Source: Eubacteriales bacterium
Lineage (GTDB): Bacteria; Bacillota; Clostridia; Oscillospirales; SIG627
Direction of reading: 5' to 3'
Assembly: GCA_045536965.1 (NCBI GenBank)
Contig: JAZSON010000029.1
Location: forward strand, 72,052 to 136,051
Length of the DNA stretch: 64,000 nt
The notes under the pieces: generated by a model
The model's database searches: none
The model's input: only the letters and a program-made list of their open reading frames with translations
What the model was told of the DNA's origin: nothing
Shown here: in pieces, positions 4,137 through 11,178 of the stretch
How positions within the stretch are numbered: position 1 is the first letter of the stretch
Layout: every line of letters begins with the position of its first letter
Made by a program: the position numbers and the translations under genes

Positions 4137-4964
4137 ATGAGTCAAGAATGCAATCATGATTGCTCGAATTGCAAAAGCAACTGCGGCGGTAAGCCCGAAA
4201 GTTTAATAGAAAAATGTCATCCGATGGCCAAAGTAAAGAATGTCATCGGTGTAGTCAGCGGCAAGGGCGGTGTAGGTAAATCGGCTGTCACCTCCATGTT
4301 GGCGGTATTGTCCCGCAGAAAAGGATATGAAACGGCTGTTTTGGATGCTGATATCACAGGTCCCTCCATCCCTCGTATGTTCGGAATTACGGGGCATGCC
4401 CATGGCGATGAACAGGGAATCTATCCCGTTTTGACCAAAACGGGTATTCAAACCATGTCGGTCAACCTTCTTTTGGAAAATGAAACCGATCCCGTTGTTT
4501 GGCGCGGTCCCGTGATTGCAGGTACCGTCAAACAGTTCTGGACGGACGTTATTTGGAAAGATGTTGACTATATGTATGTCGATATGCCTCCGGGAACGGG
4601 TGATGTGCCCCTGACCGTTTTCCAGTCCATCCCGTTGACAGGTATCGTTGTGGTTGCATCTCCGCAAGAGCTTGTTTCCATGATTGTGGAAAAAGCAGTG
4701 AAAATGGCCGATATGATGAAGGTTCCCGTTTTGGGTATCGTGGAAAATATGTCCTATTTTGAATGTCCCGATTGCGGCGCAAAGCACAGAGTTTTCGGAG
4801 AAAATCATGTAGACGAAATTGCCGCGCGTTACGGCATTCGATCGGTTGCCTGTCTTCCCATTTCCCAAAATATTGCCCGCGCAGGGGACAAGGGCAGAAT
4901 TGAGGAATTTGAAGGTGGCTGGCTTGATGGATTGAGCGATTATTTGGAGACAGTGGCAAAATAA
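4137..4964 (+). CDS. Mrp/NBP35 family ATP-binding Fe-S cluster carrier protein
   Basis: Deviant Walker A motif GKGGVGKS and an N-terminal Cys-rich segment CNHDCSNCKSNC. The start at 4137 has GGGAG 8 nt upstream. The ATG at 4113 would sit almost on the predicted transcription start. Confidence 0.85.
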   Translation: MSQECNHDCSNCKSNCGGKPESLIEKCHPMAKVKNVIGVVSGKGGVGKSAVTSMLAVLSRRKGYETAVLDADITGPSIPRMFGITGHAHGDEQGIYPVLTKTGIQTMSVNLLLENETDPVVWRGPVIAGTVKQFWTDVIWKDVDYMYVDMPPGTGDVPLTVFQSIPLTGIVVVASPQELVSMIVEKAVKMADMMKVPVLGIVENMSYFECPDCGAKHRVFGENHVDEIAARYGIRSVACLPISQNIARAGDKGRIEEFEGGWLDGLSDYLETVAK

Positions 4965-4992: not shown

Positions 4993-5021
4993 TTGACTTT
5001 TTTTGTCGGGTATGGTATTGT
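4993..5021 (+). promoter_or_regulatory. Promoter driving the T-box leader
   Basis: TTGACT (4993-4998), 17-nt spacer ending TGg, TATTGT (5016-5021). Confidence 0.5.
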
Positions 5022-5029
5022 ACTCGTGT

Positions 5030-5293
5030 AAAAGCTGTGACCGAAAACAAGTAGACGGCGGTTGTTTTTTCAGAGAGTCGGCGGTGGGTGTGAGCCGATG
5101 GAACGCCTCCTTCGAATACAGTTCGTGAGCTTCGTCCCGAAGCCGTTTTGGCGGTGTGTAGGCGGCGACGGTTTTACCCCGTTACGGTGAAGGGCATGTT
5201 TTGTGCCCGTTGAGGTCGTCTTTGTGAGAAGGCGGCGAAGTTCGAGGTGGTACCGCGGATAAATCCGCCCTCATGATTTTCATGAGGGCTTTT
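5030..5293 (+). promoter_or_regulatory. T-box riboswitch leader (probable Tyr specifier UAC)
   Basis: Stem I elements are present: AGUA (5050-5053), AG bulge AGAGAG (5072-5077) and a distal-loop GGUGUGA-like sequence. GAA-UAC-A lies at 5114-5120, with UAC at 5117-5119. The canonical T-box sequence GAGGUGGUACCGCGG is at 5244-5258. A terminator hairpin gccctcatg/catgagggc (5267-5289) is followed by TTTT. Confidence 0.8.
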
Positions 5294-5316
5294 TCATTTT
5301 GAAAGGATGTATAGAC

Positions 5317-6951
5317 ATGATAATTACCGAGTTACTGGAACGGAATGCCAAACTCTATCCTGATGATGTGAGTTTGGTCGAAGTCAATCCCGCCGTCCGT
5401 CCCGATCCGTCCCTTACATGGCATGAATTCAGTTTGATCGAAACGGCCGCGGGTGAAAAGTACAGACGGGAAATTAGCTGGAAGGATTTTGATGTCAAGG
5501 CCAACCGCTTTGCCAATTTACTGCTTACCCGCGGTGTCAAAAAAGGGGATAAGGTTGCCATACTTCTTATGAACTGTTTGGAATGGCTTCCCATTTATTT
5601 CGGTGTTTTGAAAGCGGGTGCTTTGGCCGTTCCCATGAATTACCGTTATACGGGTGAAGAAATTCGGTATTGTTTGGATCTGGCCGATGCCGATGTGTTG
5701 GTTTTCGGTCCTGAATTTGTCGAACGAATTGATTCGGTCCGTGATTCTTTGCACCGAGTCAAGGATTATTTTTATGTCGGCGCCGACTGTCCCGCTTATG
5801 CAGGGGAGTACACTCGTCTGGTCAACTATTGTTCTTCCATTGCTCCCGCCGTCCATCTCGATGAAGAAGATGATGCTGCGATCTATTTTTCTTCGGGTAC
5901 AACAGGTTTTCCGAAAGCTATTTTACATACCCATCGCGCTTTATACAGCTCCTGCTGCACCGAACAAAATCATCACGGTCAGACCCGTGACGACGTTTTC
6001 CTTTGTATTCCGCCTCTTTACCATACAGGCGCTAAAATGCATTGGTTCGGTTCTCTTTTGGCAGGAAGCCGTGCTGTTTTGCTGCGCGGCATTAAACCCG
6101 AATGGGTGCTTGAAACCGCATCGCAGGAACAGGCGACCATCGTGTGGCTTTTGGTGCCGTGGGTGCAGGATATTTTGGATGCCATCGACCGCGGTGATTT
6201 GAAACTTTCCGACTACTGCTTGGACGCTTGGCGATTGATGCACATTGGCGCCCAACCCGTTCCGCCCAGTTTGATTCGTCGCTGGCTGAAGGTGTTCCCC
6301 AAACATCAGTATGATACCAACTACGGTTTGAGTGAATCCATCGGGCCGGGATGCGTGCATCTTGGTGTGGAAAACATTGATAAAGTGGGTGCCATCGGAA
6401 AGGCAGGGTATCTTTGGGAAACCAAAATCGTGGATGAAAATGGCAATTCCGTGGTCGGTGAAGATGTCGGTGAATTGGCTGTCAAAGGCCCCGGTGTCAT
6501 GAAATGTTATTATAAAAATCCCGTCGCTACCGCTGAAATATTAAAAGATGGTTGGCTTTATACGGGAGATATGGCCAAATGCGATAAAGATGGTTTTATT
6601 TATTTGGTTGATCGCAAAAAAGATGTTATTATATCGGGCGGTGAGAACCTTTACCCCGTACAGATTGAGGATCATTTGCGTGCCCATCCTGCCGTAAAGG
6701 ATGTTGCTGTCATCGGATTGCCGGATGAACGCTTGGGTGAGATTGCTGCGGCCGTGATCGAAATAAAAGAAGATGCCGTTTGCACACAAAGTGATATCGA
6801 TGCTTTTTGTATGGAGCTTCCCCGTTATAAACGTCCCCGCAAGATAATCTTTGCAGATGTTCCCCGCAATCCGACGGGAAAGATTGAAAAACCGAAACTG
6901 CGTGAAAAATACTGCGGCGGCAGATTGGTAGAGGCGCAAACCACAAAATAA
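5317..6951 (+). CDS. Adenylate-forming enzyme (AMP-dependent acyl-CoA synthetase/ligase family)
   Basis: AMP-binding motif SSGTTGFPKA, plus later YTGD and GKIEKPKLRE motifs. The start at 5317 has GAAAGGA upstream. Confidence 0.85.
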   Translation: MIITELLERNAKLYPDDVSLVEVNPAVRPDPSLTWHEFSLIETAAGEKYRREISWKDFDVKANRFANLLLTRGVKKGDKVAILLMNCLEWLPIYFGVLKAGALAVPMNYRYTGEEIRYCLDLADADVLVFGPEFVERIDSVRDSLHRVKDYFYVGADCPAYAGEYTRLVNYCSSIAPAVHLDEEDDAAIYFSSGTTGFPKAILHTHRALYSSCCTEQNHHGQTRDDVFLCIPPLYHTGAKMHWFGSLLAGSRAVLLRGIKPEWVLETASQEQATIVWLLVPWVQDILDAIDRGDLKLSDYCLDAWRLMHIGAQPVPPSLIRRWLKVFPKHQYDTNYGLSESIGPGCVHLGVENIDKVGAIGKAGYLWETKIVDENGNSVVGEDVGELAVKGPGVMKCYYKNPVATAEILKDGWLYTGDMAKCDKDGFIYLVDRKKDVIISGGENLYPVQIEDHLRAHPAVKDVAVIGLPDERLGEIAAAVIEIKEDAVCTQSDIDAFCMELPRYKRPRKIIFADVPRNPTGKIEKPKLREKYCGGRLVEAQTTK

Positions 6952-6952
6952 C

Positions 6953-6981
6953 TTGACACAGTAGCCTTGATGTATTATAAT
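6953..6981 (+). promoter_or_regulatory. Consensus SigA-type promoter for the lipoprotein gene
   Basis: TTGACA (6953-6958), 17-nt spacer, TATAAT (6976-6981). Confidence 0.65.
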
Positions 6982-7018: not shown

Positions 7019-8575
7019 ATGAGCAAATATATGCGTATGGTTAGTTTCTTTCTTGCGCTTGTTTTGACTCTATCTTGCTCTTTGGTCGGTTGCGGCGACA
7101 GTGGAGATGGCGGAAAAGAGGATGGAAAGGGTGATAAAAACGATGGTGTGATATCACCTGATGATTATACCAAGAATCCCGGACATACCATGAGCGGTAT
7201 GTTTGGTTACGAACTCAAACCCGTGCAGGGACTTGATCTTGATGGATTTAATTTCAATGTGCTTGTTCCCGCCGATAGCGGTTGGGTGGTATCTCGTGAT
7301 TTTGCCACCGAGTATTCCGAGGCAGGCTCCGATGTTATTCAGGATGCCGCTTTTGCCCGTGTGGAAAAGTTAAAAGAGCTCTACAATGTAAACGTAAAGT
7401 CGATTACAACGAGTAGCAAAGTCGTTACCGATGCCGACATTGACATCGGCGGGCAGCTTGGAACATATTCTTTGATTCTTTGCGGCGTCACCGAGATCGG
7501 CAGTCTTTCCCTGAAAAACCGCTTGGCCGATTTGACAGAGTTTGCCGATGAAGAGATTACATTGGATGCCCCTTGGTACAATCAAAACTTCGTGGACAAC
7601 ATGACCATTGGCGGAAGACTCTTCTATGTTATCGGCGATTTTTCCATCATCGATAACGAGGGTATTTCGGTTTTGCAGTACAATCTCGATCTTTTCGATG
7701 AATACAAGCTTCCCAACCCTTATACCATGGTGTATGACGGAACTTGGACAATGGATGCCCTTCATGAACTCTGCAAAGGCCGTGTTTCCGACTTCACTGG
7801 TGACGGTATTGTCGATCAATACGATAGCTTTGGTTTCATGACAGCCTCCTCCAACATTGTCTTTTTCATGACATCGGGCGCTGTAAAGTTTGCCGATAAG
7901 GACGAAGATGATTTGCCCTATCTTTCGTTAAACAATAGCCACAGCATTGAAGTGCTTGATAAGGTTTTGCTTCTTTATGGCGACAAAACCTCGACGGTTT
8001 ATTACGACGAGTTTAACAAAGATTTGAACTCAAGCAATGAACAACATGAATATGCCAACAAGGTGTTTATGGAAAACCGTGCGCTTGTGCGTGAATGTTC
8101 CATGTATCGTGTCACCCAGACTCGTTCTATGGTGAGCGATTTCGGTATTCTTCCCATTCCGAAAGCCGATGTGGATCAGGATCAGTATTACCACATGTAT
8201 TCCTTCTCTTCTCCCGCTGTGGCAATTCCTGCTTATTTGAAAAAGGAACTGTCTCATGCGGAGGCTGCGGCCGTTTTGGAAGCCCTTTCTTATTACGGAA
8301 GATCGCTTCTCCTTTACTCTTACTACGAAACGGTGCTGAAAGGCCGTGTTGCCCGTGATGAAGATTCCCGCGCCATGCTTGATATCATTTTCGACTCTTC
8401 TTATTTTGATATCGGTATTTGTAACAACTTCGGCGGTATCGCCTATGTGTTCAACAACAGCAGCAAATATCGTGTCAACACATTTGCATCCGATTTTGAT
8501 GCCATCAAACAAAAAGCCGAATCGGATATTGAAGAGTATGTTGAATCCTGGTCTGAATTTCTTTTGAACACTTAA
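7019..8575 (+). CDS. Lipoprotein, large extracellular solute-binding-protein-like
   Basis: Signal peptide with lipobox LVGC, followed by a Gly/Asp/Lys-rich linker. AGGAGG SD. Size and composition resemble about 500-aa sugar-binding lipoproteins. No permease genes are adjacent. Confidence 0.5.
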   Translation: MSKYMRMVSFFLALVLTLSCSLVGCGDSGDGGKEDGKGDKNDGVISPDDYTKNPGHTMSGMFGYELKPVQGLDLDGFNFNVLVPADSGWVVSRDFATEYSEAGSDVIQDAAFARVEKLKELYNVNVKSITTSSKVVTDADIDIGGQLGTYSLILCGVTEIGSLSLKNRLADLTEFADEEITLDAPWYNQNFVDNMTIGGRLFYVIGDFSIIDNEGISVLQYNLDLFDEYKLPNPYTMVYDGTWTMDALHELCKGRVSDFTGDGIVDQYDSFGFMTASSNIVFFMTSGAVKFADKDEDDLPYLSLNNSHSIEVLDKVLLLYGDKTSTVYYDEFNKDLNSSNEQHEYANKVFMENRALVRECSMYRVTQTRSMVSDFGILPIPKADVDQDQYYHMYSFSSPAVAIPAYLKKELSHAEAAAVLEALSYYGRSLLLYSYYETVLKGRVARDEDSRAMLDIIFDSSYFDIGICNNFGGIAYVFNNSSKYRVNTFASDFDAIKQKAESDIEEYVESWSEFLLNT

Positions 8576-8669: not shown

Positions 8670-8707
8670 GTGGACATAAACTGTAAAAAATGAAAGGTGG
8701 AGCATGT

Positions 8708-9265
8708 ATGAATTGGATCGTCATTGCCGTCATTGCGCTGGTTGCCCTTTTGGTCATTTGGTTTATTTCGTCGTATAATGGATTTGTCAAAAGAAAAAAT
8801 GGTGTAGAAGAAGCTTTTTCGACCATGGATGTCTATATGAAAAAACGCTTCGATATGATTCCCAATCTGGTTGAAACGGTCAAAGGATACGCCAAACATG
8901 AGAGCGAAACACTGGAAAAAGTCATTGCCGCCCGCAATCAAATTGCAAACGGTACCTCAACCGCGGATAGACTGAAAGGGGAGAATGCTTTAAGCGGCAC
9001 CTTGAAATCTCTCTTTGCTTTGGCTGAAAGTTATCCCGATTTGAAGGCCAACAGCAACTTTACCGCTTTGCAGAATCAACTGACCTCCATCGAGGGAGAA
9101 ATCGCCATGTCCCGCAAGTATTATAATGCTTGTGTCAAGGAGTTTAATACCAAGACACAAACCTTCCCCAGCGTCATCATTGCCAATATGTTTGGATTCC
9201 AACGCTTCACTATGTTTGAAGTGGATGCTCCCGAAGAACGTAAAAATGTGAAAGTGCAGTTCTGA
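8708..9265 (+). CDS. lemA: LemA family protein
   Basis: N-terminal TM helix, then the SYNGFV...V..AFS..DV..KRR.D.IPNLV pattern typical of LemA. GGTGGAG SD before the ATG at 8708. Confidence 0.85.
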   Translation: MNWIVIAVIALVALLVIWFISSYNGFVKRKNGVEEAFSTMDVYMKKRFDMIPNLVETVKGYAKHESETLEKVIAARNQIANGTSTADRLKGENALSGTLKSLFALAESYPDLKANSNFTALQNQLTSIEGEIAMSRKYYNACVKEFNTKTQTFPSVIIANMFGFQRFTMFEVDAPEERKNVKVQF

Positions 9266-9267
9266 TT

Positions 9268-11178
9268 ATGAAACGAATCGTTCAAATTACAGCCCTTTTA
9301 ATACTTGTATGCTGTCTGCTTTCCTGTTCACCGTTTGATTTTACCGAGGATGCAAGCGGTAACTTGAATATCGACAGCGGTTATTGCTATGAAGATCTTG
9401 CCATCCGTGTCGTAGTGGATGATGCCCACGCTTACCATGTCAGTTGGGATGTTTCCATTCAATATTTTAAACCGAGACACGGCTTTTACATCTATACCCC
9501 GTATGTAGCCGAGGTTGATTTAAAGGAAGCTGAATACGGTCGGTACTACATGGAGTATTCCGATTTTGCCGTAACAGGCGCTCCTTACGAGGTCTACACC
9601 GAGGACTTGAATTACATTGTCAAGGTCGGCGATCCCAACAAAACGGTGACGGGGATTCAAAAGTATACCATTTCCTATGTTTGTGAAGTTGGTGCTGATT
9701 TTTCCGATGCGCTTGATATTCTTTATTGGAACATTGTCGGCTCCTTTATGGATACCCAAATCAACAACATCTCTTTTGAAGTGGTCCTGCCTCACGCCAT
9801 TGAAAAGGGAAGCGAAGCCAAACTGTATCAGGGTGGTTATGGTTCGCCGCGATATTTGACCCTCAAAACCGAGGACGGCGTGTCCTTTAAGTATGAAAAT
9901 AAAAACGGTCTTGGCAGTTACAATGGGTTAACGCTGTATCTTGAACTGCCCGACGGATATTATACCGATGTGTCAACCCCTGGTATCCTGCCCGCGTTTC
10001 TTTTGATTGCAGTAGGAATCGGCACAGTTTTGCTTTGTGTTTTTCTCTACCGCAAATTCGGTGTTGACCGCACGGTTCTTCCCACGGTGGAGTTTGAAGC
10101 TCCCGAGGGGGTGGATTCGGCGGCGGCGGGATATATTCTCGATGGCTCTGCCGATGCAAAAGACATCGTTTCTCTCATTTTTTGGTTTGCCGATCATGGA
10201 TATTTAACGGTCGAGGATGCAGGCGCTGACACCTTTATTCTCCACAAGAAAAAAGAATTGCCCGACGATGCCCCCCGTTATTTGAATTCCGTCTTTGCAG
10301 GATTTTTTGATGGACGCGACAGCGTTTCCACCCAAGACTTGAATCTCCATTTTTATAAGACCACTCAGGCGGCGCAAACTTCCTTAACACATCATTGGTG
10401 TAAAAAGATATTTGATCAAAAAAGCAGTGTTATGCAGGTGCTTTCGGGGTTTGTTTCTCTCATACCCTTTTTCTTCTGTGTGCTGTGGTCGATTTGTGTC
10501 AGCTCTGCTTTGCTTGATACCGGTGTCATCGGCCTTATGCTTATTTTGGTGGTGGCCGTTGGTTCTGGAGAATTTCTCCTTTCCCGCTGGGTCACTTCAA
10601 AATCGTCCTACGGATTTATAAAGCGGAGTGGCATGCTCATGTTAAGCGTTCTCATTTTGCTCCTTTCCGCTTTCCTGTTTGGATGGATCATCCCCGCATT
10701 TGTGGTGGATCCTTGGGGGATCTCTCGCTGGGCGGGTGTGTTTACCATGGCTTGCTTGCCCTTTGTGATGTTTGCGGGGCGAAAGACCGAGGAGGGAGAA
10801 GCGCTCTTTGCAAAACTTTGCGGTTTCCGCACCTTCATCGAAAAGGCCGAGAAGGAGCGTATTGAAAAAATGGTAGCACAAGACCCTGCTTATTTTTATC
10901 ATGTTCTGCCGTATGCGTACGCTCTGGGTGTCACCGATCAATGGGCAAAACGTTTTGAAAAGATCACCATTGAACCCCCGAGCTGGTACAGTTCCTCAAG
11001 TATGGATGCCTTCACCCTCTATCTGTTCATGTCTTCGTTTAGGCGATCTGCGATGGTCATGAATCGTTCCATGGTTTCCCGTCCCGAAGTCAAAGGCAGT
11101 TCGGGTGGTGGATTCTCGGGCGGTGGTGGCGGATTCTCGGGCGGCGGCTTCGGCGGCGGTGGCGGCGGTAGCTGGTAA
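9268..11178 (+). CDS. DUF2207-like membrane protein with Gly-rich C-terminal tail
   Basis: Follows lemA by 2 nt, the usual LemA/DUF2207 pairing. Lipoprotein-like signal LLSC, multiple TM helices, and a C-terminal GGGFSGGGGGFSGGGFGGGGGGSW tail. Confidence 0.7.
   Translation: MKRIVQITALLILVCCLLSCSPFDFTEDASGNLNIDSGYCYEDLAIRVVVDDAHAYHVSWDVSIQYFKPRHGFYIYTPYVAEVDLKEAEYGRYYMEYSDFAVTGAPYEVYTEDLNYIVKVGDPNKTVTGIQKYTISYVCEVGADFSDALDILYWNIVGSFMDTQINNISFEVVLPHAIEKGSEAKLYQGGYGSPRYLTLKTEDGVSFKYENKNGLGSYNGLTLYLELPDGYYTDVSTPGILPAFLLIAVGIGTVLLCVFLYRKFGVDRTVLPTVEFEAPEGVDSAAAGYILDGSADAKDIVSLIFWFADHGYLTVEDAGADTFILHKKKELPDDAPRYLNSVFAGFFDGRDSVSTQDLNLHFYKTTQAAQTSLTHHWCKKIFDQKSSVMQVLSGFVSLIPFFFCVLWSICVSSALLDTGVIGLMLILVVAVGSGEFLLSRWVTSKSSYGFIKRSGMLMLSVLILLLSAFLFGWIIPAFVVDPWGISRWAGVFTMACLPFVMFAGRKTEEGEALFAKLCGFRTFIEKAEKERIEKMVAQDPAYFYHVLPYAYALGVTDQWAKRFEKITIEPPSWYSSSSMDAFTLYLFMSSFRRSAMVMNRSMVSRPEVKGSSGGGFSGGGGGFSGGGFGGGGGGSW

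Follow-up and report, generated by a model that had tools for sequence, protein, structure and literature searches.

A T-box leader with a tyrosine specifier precedes an adenylate-forming ligase gene and suggests a link to aromatic amino acid supply

A stretch of 64,000 nucleotides from an Eubacteriales bacterium of the Clostridia (contig JAZSON010000029.1, positions 72,052 to 136,051; the whole stretch is here called the window) raises the question of why a gene for an adenylate-forming, acyl-coenzyme A (acyl-CoA) synthetase-like ligase of the ANL superfamily should stand behind a T-box leader RNA. An interpretation made earlier from the letters of the DNA, here called the sequence-only reading, had proposed that the leader responds to tRNA-Tyr and that the enzyme behind it activates an aromatic acid or an amino acid, and had named an Rfam search as a check. 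When the entire window was searched with cmscan, a single Rfam match exceeded its gathering score, the T-box family RF00230 on the forward strand at positions 5028 to 5275. The match scored 104.1 bits against a gathering score of 93 (E value of 6.7e-22) and covered the full length of the model (model positions 1 to 219), which bears out the T-box claim. Moreover, the leader scored 151 bits in an nhmmer search with a hidden Markov model (HMM) of the family, and no open reading frame of 60 or more amino acids overlapped it on either strand. No tRNA gene was found in the 64-kb window, the T-box being the sole Rfam match.

The anatomy of the leader is that of a textbook member of the family (Table 1). 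AGUA at 5050 to 5053 was aligned by cmscan opposite GAA-UAC-A (5114 to 5120), and the AG bulge, the conserved T-box sequence, and a terminator stem beginning at 5267 were likewise found where the sequence-only reading had placed them. The proposed distal loop was also present, but its sequence was GGUGGGUGUGA and not GGUGUGA. The AG bulge and the distal loop make up the Stem I distal platform for the tRNA elbow, and an S-turn of AGUA and GAA followed by a codon and then a purine is the arrangement of a T-box specifier loop. The antiterminator encloses the bulge UGGUACC (5248 to 5254) and a helix of GCGGA with UCCGC, such that antiterminator and terminator compete and a UGGN bulge lies within the former. 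The terminator, at approximately -19.7 kcal/mol, forms in the minimum free energy (MFE) fold of the whole leader, and its 5′ arm (5267 to 5276) reuses the CCUC of the antiterminator. Because both structures use the bases at 5267 to 5272, antiterminator and terminator are mutually exclusive. The UGGU of the bulge (5248 to 5251) would pair with a tRNA 3′ end that reads ACCA, that is, one with a discriminator A, and a discriminator A agrees with bacterial tRNA-Tyr and tRNA-Phe. Upstream of the leader, a candidate sigma-70-type promoter, recognized by its match to the consensus, would place the start of transcription near 5028, the same place at which the T-box model starts. All testable features of sequence and structure that define RF00230 were found in the leader. 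We conclude that it is a standard transcription-attenuation T-box riboswitch, as an RNA an ordinary member of RF00230 and mechanistically nothing new.

The gene that follows the leader encodes a protein of 544 amino acids with matches to PF00501 (242 bits) and PF13193 (47.6 bits), the N- and C-domains of an ANL enzyme, and in this respect the sequence-only reading, which had recognized the motif SSGTTGFPKA, was correct. Its start codon requires a small amendment, as the ATG lies at 5317 and not at 5318. The ANL core motifs S192-A201 (SSGTTGFPKA), Y336-E340, and T416-D418 and the catalytic K522 were invariant in 17 homologues. No NCBIfam model reached its cut-off for the ligase, the best being the long-chain-fatty-acid-CoA ligase model PRK06187 (419.6 versus 476), and the other models shown fell far under theirs. 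Models of the phenylacetate-CoA ligase PaaK (TIGR02155) were absent from the 25 best NCBIfam matches, and the ligase is thus not of the PaaK family. The nearest solved structure was the distant FadD13 of Mycobacterium tuberculosis (PDB 3r44; 258 bits over residues 54 to 533), followed by FadD5, feruloyl-CoA synthetase, malonyl-CoA synthetase, and 4-coumarate ligases. Because no NCBIfam cut-off was reached and the nearest structures are distant, the libraries yield a superfamily and not a substrate, and any role of the enzyme as an arylacetate ligase would be by analogy rather than by membership in the PaaK family.

Relatives of the ligase were used to examine how often the gene and the leader occur together. 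The ligase has thousands of homologues, the best 120 of which are 75 to 79% identical to it. One genome per GTDB species was scanned, at least 589 stretches were found to encode a relative, and the best 80 loci, at 69 to 77% identity, were kept. These came from Oscillospiraceae, Acutalibacteraceae, Ruminococcus, and Christensenella-like metagenome-assembled genomes (MAGs), and they also included Sporomusa ovata, a Syntrophomonadaceae MAG, Smithella, and another deltaproteobacterium. An Rfam scan of 38 loci gave 29 RF00230 matches above the gathering score, and an HMM made from these matches was run over all loci. A T-box was present in 32 of the 80 loci in addition to the window, and as one Pseudoflavonifractor locus (L045) carries two, the total came to 34. 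The T-box was the first element of the ligase-containing unit in every case, and the second T-box of L045 stood between the ligase gene and the gene for IorA, a subunit of indolepyruvate:ferredoxin oxidoreductase (IOR). Loci with a T-box ranged from Oscillospiraceae and Acutalibacteraceae to Sporomusa, including Sporomusa ovata DSM 2662. All 34 T-boxes had UGGU, and hence a predicted discriminator A, and each had a terminator (-10.8 to -30 kcal/mol) with a T-run behind it. The pairing of leader and gene that the sequence-only reading had looked for in related genomes thus exists in these 32 loci; the loci from which it is missing are weighed below. A chance juxtaposition was rejected, as the pairing occurred in 32 independent species and with Tyr or Phe specifiers only.

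The amino acid to which a leader answers depends on the frame in which its specifier loop is read. The covariance model aligned GAA-UAC-A-G of the window leader to GAAauuca, which makes positions 4 to 6, UAC, the codon slot. The frame was checked independently by an alignment of Stem I from all 34 T-boxes (those of the 32 loci, with both from L045, plus the window). The codon block was UAC in 27 and UUC in the other 7, and thus specified Tyr or Phe only. RNAalifold, run on a MAFFT alignment of Stem I, found the distal helix only, as the variable regions align poorly, and the named helices were therefore tested by counting paired columns. The loop-closing helix, which has four pairs, was 91.9% paired across the 34 homologues with compensatory changes in all four pairs, and the distal helix was 94.6% paired with compensatory changes in six of six. 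Taken together, the basal, loop-closing, and distal helices had 93.1% of cells paired, versus 33 to 44% in slid controls in which the pairing partner was moved by 1 to 3 columns. Compensatory changes were found in 12 of the 12 pairs of these three helices, and none of 500 shuffles matched the observed values. Were the specifier not Tyr, a frame shifted by -1 would give AUA or AUU (Ile) and one shifted by +1 would give ACA or UCA (Thr or Ser). The -1 frame yields an Ile codon in both sequence classes, and the letters by themselves do not decide. The layout GAA-NNN-R-N, with the codon at positions 4 to 6, is set, however, by the covariance model and by covariation in the helix that closes the loop. 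Moreover, in the Tyr/Phe frame the invariant C becomes the third position of the codon, where T-boxes are known to prefer C, Ile T-boxes normally use AUC, and an aromatic gene context (IorAB and PaaK, see below) speaks against Ile. Both shifted frames were rejected on the model layout, the covarying closing helix, and the gene context, and a specifier other than Tyr is extremely unlikely. We conclude that the UAC codon claimed by the sequence-only reading is correctly framed and that the leader is almost certainly a functional-type Tyr T-box.

We note that two leaders of relatives (L016:307-573 and L066:1128-1390) read GAAUUACA and GAAUUACG, respectively. Their codon is UUA (Leu) when counted from GAA and UAC (Tyr) when counted from the closing helix, and leaders of this type could be mis-assigned by automated specifier callers.

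Genes next to the ligase in relatives indicated what kind of pathway the T-box might serve. A gene for a sodium:solute symporter (SSF family, PF00474, approximately 510 amino acids) immediately flanked the ligase gene, on one side or the other, in 32 of the 80 loci, and IorA and IorB were encoded directly downstream of it in 39, a linkage that the window does not share. A symporter gene, an iorA gene, or both stood beside the ligase gene in 52 of the 80 loci, and 27 of the 32 T-boxes head a cluster of this kind. IorA passed the cut-off of TIGR03336 (734.7 versus 650.9) and IorB passed that of NF005325 (295.4 versus 230), and the gene after iorB often matched PaaK models (TIGR02155). The gap between the ligase gene and iorA is typically about 20 to 55 nucleotides, which suggests one operon. 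In the Syntrophomonadaceae MAG, an aminotransferase gene precedes the ligase gene. The part of the sequence-only reading that saw an aromatic-acid-activating enzyme induced by uncharged tRNA is strengthened by the 52 clusters, but its alternative of an amino-acid-activating enzyme is not favored. The earlier interpretation as such is supported.

Two loci show variations on the cluster. In L045, a Tyr (UAC) T-box at 2705 to 2947 precedes the ligase gene and a Phe (UUC) T-box at 4726 to 4962 precedes iorA-iorB, such that adjacent genes of one pathway answer to different tRNAs in what amounts to a natural dissection. Sporomusa ovata DSM 2662, which is in culture and completely sequenced, has the order Tyr T-box, ligase, and CstA (L065:2658-6462), and CstA, of the carbon-starvation/pyruvate-peptide transporter family, stands where the SSF symporter is found elsewhere.

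The likely purpose of such a unit is suggested by biochemistry known from other anaerobes. Methanococcus maripaludis, according to work cited in one report (PMC4162585), has a second route to aromatic amino acids that depends on IOR and is fed by aryl acids, and rumen cultures can form Phe from phenylacetate (PMC7356843). In Bacteroides, IOR colocalizes with an AMP-forming arylacetate-CoA ligase, from which a 2026 study argued for an anabolic role (PMC13285125).

We propose a model in which transcription would start near 5028 and Stem I would present UAC (5117 to 5119) to the anticodon GUA of tRNA-Tyr. In vivo, the free ACCA end of an uncharged tRNA-Tyr would pair with UGGU and stabilize the antiterminator, the overlapping terminator would be blocked, and polymerase would read into the ligase gene. 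Charged tRNA-Tyr would make no contact with UGGU, and transcription would end at the U-tract. An aryl acid would be taken up from the environment, presumably by the symporter, and the ligase would then make its CoA thioester. IorAB, with reduced ferredoxin, would carry out the reductive carboxylation of arylacetyl-CoA to 4-hydroxyphenylpyruvate or phenylpyruvate, and a transaminase would convert the arylpyruvate to Tyr or Phe. The pathway probably runs in this biosynthetic, or salvage, direction because the T-box switches on when the amino acid is scarce. That the ligase serves aromatic amino acid supply we regard as quite probable. The likeliest substrate would be 4-hydroxyphenylacetate, probably with phenylacetate as well, and the choice of 4-hydroxyphenylacetate specifically is tentative, at a little under even odds. 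With similar reserve we suggest that the family may be the missing 4-hydroxyphenylacetate- or arylacetate-activating enzyme of a T-box-controlled reductive-carboxylation route to Tyr and Phe. For the reading as a whole, a Tyr T-box on an aryl-acid ligase that feeds an IOR-dependent supply of Tyr and Phe, we estimate a probability of roughly 0.65.

Several observations weigh against this reading. No iorA, iorB, symporter, or paaK gene was found by tblastn in the 64 kb of the window, and the closest characterized relatives of the ligase are fatty-acyl and feruloyl-CoA ligases. The symporter best matches PutP and PanF models, below their cut-offs, and its cargo could be an amino acid instead of an aryl acid. 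A second arylacetate ligase beside PaaK looks redundant unless the substrates of the two differ. All 13 T-box units without iorA in view had Tyr specifiers and the six Phe leaders that head a unit all had iorA, a split that is only suggestive (Fisher P = 0.059, for loci that are not phylogenetically independent). Finally, 48 of the 80 loci, including those of Ruminococcus flavefaciens strains and proteobacteria, had no leader, and three contigs that carry the closest relatives (76 to 79% identity) had ordinary promoters and no T-box. To this extent the expected pairing of leader and gene fails, and because of these loci and contigs Tyr control must be called lineage specific. We conclude that the association of T-box and ligase is recurrent and specific but lineage dependent.

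Some of these points would be accommodated if the T-box were real but the ligase were a generic fatty-acyl-CoA synthetase for medium or long chains with no connection to Tyr, the leader before it being accidental or decaying. The best family matches of the ligase are to fatty-acid-CoA ligases (PRK06187, FadD5, and FadD13), some sources name its homologues FadD13, and the gene stands alone in the window and lacks a T-box in 48 of 80 orthologues. A leader of that kind is, however, difficult to reconcile with a pairing seen repeatedly, in several families and in 32 of 80 species-level loci, and with 34 T-boxes that specify only Tyr or Phe and all retain intact terminators. The ligase reaches no NCBIfam cut-off, and its neighbors are IorAB, PaaK, and the symporter and not genes of beta-oxidation, all of which makes a generic fatty-acyl enzyme improbable. 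Another possibility retains the link to Tyr and Phe and changes the acid. Were the substrate 3-(4-hydroxyphenyl)propionate, p-coumarate, or an aryl-lactate, entry would be by a reversed reductive (Stickland-type) route to arylpyruvate, with aryl acetates left to IorAB and PaaK, and the presence of two different ligases in one cluster would be explained. 4-Coumarate and feruloyl-CoA ligases are relatives of the family, and aryl acids with a C3 side chain and aryl-lactates are abundant in the gut and rumen. Genes for a phenyllactate dehydratase (Fld-type), a CoA-transferase, or an acyl-CoA dehydrogenase were nevertheless absent from the 3 to 10 kb of ligase flanks examined, and the tight spacing of ligase and iorA better fits a product that is used directly by IOR. 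We consider a substrate of this type unlikely.

The cluster might also be catabolic, in which case Tyr or Phe would be imported by the symporter, IOR would oxidize them to arylacetyl-CoA, and the AMP-forming ligases would run in reverse for energy conservation or act in detoxification. The symporter resembles amino-acid symporters, ligase orthologues occur in syntrophs (Smithella and Syntrophomonadaceae), and reversal of AMP-forming ligases has been reported in syntrophs. IOR, moreover, is classically an oxidative enzyme and in Bacteroides has been linked to phenylacetate production (PMC13285125). The regulation runs the other way, however, as a T-box is on when its cognate tRNA is uncharged and Tyr or Phe is scarce, whereas a catabolic operon would need the reverse. 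AMP-forming ligases, moreover, favor thioester synthesis, as argued in the same study (PMC13285125), and a catabolic role is very improbable.

The supply reading, a T-box-controlled ligase working toward Tyr and Phe, joins elements that are each familiar. Like the tyrS and glyQS leaders of Bacillus subtilis, the window leader has a Stem I with a GA motif, an S-turn specifier loop, an AG bulge, and a distal loop, followed by Stem II, Stem IIA/B, Stem III, and a T-box sequence with a UGGN bulge in competing antiterminator and terminator structures. With tyrS in particular it shares the Tyr codon and the logic of induction by uncharged tRNA. Unlike in tyrS and glyQS, the regulated gene encodes an ANL ligase of the acyl-CoA type and not an aminoacyl-tRNA synthetase, a canonical biosynthetic enzyme, or a recognized amino-acid transporter, and in relatives a whole ligase-symporter-IorAB-PaaK cluster is under the T-box. 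In the acs-actP operon of Escherichia coli, an AMP-forming acetyl-CoA synthetase is paired with an SSF-family acetate permease for uptake followed by metabolic trapping. The pairing of an SSF permease with an AMP-forming CoA ligase is similar here and may likewise serve to take up and trap a carboxylic acid. The differences from acs-actP are that an aryl acid is the proposed substrate, that the symporter is no orthologue of ActP (43 bits, where the cut-off is 750), and that a T-box takes the place of CRP and other transcription factors in regulation. FadD13 of M. tuberculosis has the same ANL fold class and core motifs, but it is a distant relative and a very-long-chain fatty-acyl-CoA synthetase, and the context of the ligase shows no lipid metabolism. 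The closest parallels in pathway are the IorAB/PaaK-like clusters of Bacteroides (PMC13285125) and the route of M. maripaludis (PMC4162585), in which an AMP-forming ligase is coupled to IOR and aryl acids have been proposed or shown to be used anabolically. Unlike the Bacteroides ligases, which are PaaK-type proteins of about 430 amino acids, the window ligase is a FadD13/4CL-like protein of 544 amino acids (PF00501 and PF13193) and stands alone in the window.

In the open-access literature searched, we found no report of T-box control of an ANL ligase or of IorAB, nor of this ligase family, and the regulon is not mentioned by Wels et al. (2008). We conclude that the T-box itself is conventional, that its regulon takes in a proposed module for the assimilation of aryl acids, and that neither the regulon member nor the ligase family appears to have been described. 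Few natural labels of gene function are as reliable as the specifier codons of T-boxes, and here Tyr and Phe T-boxes tag an abundant, highly conserved ligase family and an IorAB cluster as serving the supply of Tyr and Phe. The family, with its at least 589 stretches in species-representative genomes, belongs mostly to gut and rumen Clostridia among the loci examined. If the reading is right, a function would be given to a gene widely annotated in gut and rumen metagenomes as a "long-chain fatty-acid-CoA ligase" or a "class I adenylate-forming enzyme." In many Clostridia, IOR would be anabolic and not catabolic, with the T-boxes as direct regulatory evidence, and a genetic basis would be provided for what has been observed for decades, namely that anaerobes of the rumen build aromatic amino acids from aryl acids. 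Models of how microbes produce and consume phenylacetate and 4-hydroxyphenylacetate, which are precursors of the host-relevant phenylacetylglutamine and p-cresol, would also be affected. The Tyr-responsive leader would offer a simple experimental handle, and cultured carriers such as Sporomusa ovata could serve as experimental models.

Table 1. Coordinates of the leader, the ligase gene, and adjoining features in the window
Feature	Position	Strand	Description and evidence
Candidate sigma-70-type promoter of the leader	4993..5021	+	TTGACT, 17-nt spacer, TGn-TATTGT (extended -10); 9/12 matches, TG present
T-box leader RNA (RF00230), full length	5028..5275	+	cmscan; nhmmer with family HMM
Stem I	5034..5130	+	Basal helix with GA/K-turn-like motif, specifier loop, AG bulge, distal loop; cmscan structure line
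AGUA, 5′ half of specifier-loop S-turn	5050..5053	+	Sequence and cmscan; AGTA column invariant in 34-sequence alignment
AG bulge, AGAGA	5072..5076	+	Aligns to RF00230 model
Distal loop, GGUGGGUGUGA	5083..5093	+	Aligns to RF00230 model
Specifier loop, 3′ side, GAA-UAC-A-G	5114..5121	+	GAA 5114-5116, UAC (Tyr) 5117-5119, conserved purine A5120
Stem II and Stem IIA/B region	5133..5184	+	Ends in F-box-like CCGUUA 5179-5184; cmscan alignment
Stem III	5215..5236	+	cmscan alignment; also present in MFE fold
Conserved T-box sequence, GAGGUGGUACCGCGG	5244..5258	+	cmscan alignment
Antiterminator with T-box sequence	5244..5272	+	Helix A1, GAGG 5244-5247 with CCUC 5269-5272; cmscan
Intrinsic terminator	5267..5297	+	10-bp stem 5267-5289, 3-nt loop, TTTTT 5290-5294, U-rich tract through 5297
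Putative ribosome-binding site, AAAGGA	5303..5308	+	8 nt before ATG; sequence
ANL-superfamily adenylate-forming ligase, FadD13/4CL-like class, 544 amino acids	5317..6951	+	PF00501 and PF13193
Perfect consensus promoter of next gene	6953..6981	+	TTGACA-17-TATAAT, 12/12 matches, two bases after ligase stop
Next gene, lipoprotein of 518 amino acids (signal peptide with Cys)	7019..8575	+	No Pfam or NCBIfam match

Downstream of the ligase gene, the consensus promoter that the sequence-only reading had reported directly after the stop codon was confirmed (Table 1), and the T-box-controlled unit probably ends here. No terminator was found between the ligase gene and the unrelated lipoprotein gene, and T-box read-through could thus extend into the latter. 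Farther along the window, at 8690 to 11178, a LemA (PF04011) gene is followed directly by a gene for a DUF2207 membrane protein. The two commonly co-occur, and the pair is unrelated to the ligase.

Minor features were also noted among the 80 loci and the closest relatives. The tRNA genes found in L029 and L053 are for Gly and Met and not for Tyr. The ligase is 69 to 71% identical between Clostridia, Sporomusa (Negativicutes), the Syntrophomonadaceae MAG, Smithella, and the other deltaproteobacterium (L064, L065, L067, and L080), a degree of conservation that is unusual for an ANL enzyme and could reflect strong constraint or else a recent horizontal transfer. In the Smithella and deltaproteobacterial loci, a gene for an ACT-domain pair protein (143 amino acids, PF19571) follows the ligase gene (L067:3720-4151 and its equivalent in L080), a hint that a protein may take over the response to amino acids where the T-box is absent. 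One close relative without the T-box (L083:7337-9888, and likewise L084) has a gene for an XRE-type helix-turn-helix regulator before the ligase gene, and this regulator may provide an alternative, protein-based control of it. Beyond the regulator gene lies a second, divergently oriented gene for an AMP-binding protein of 558 amino acids.

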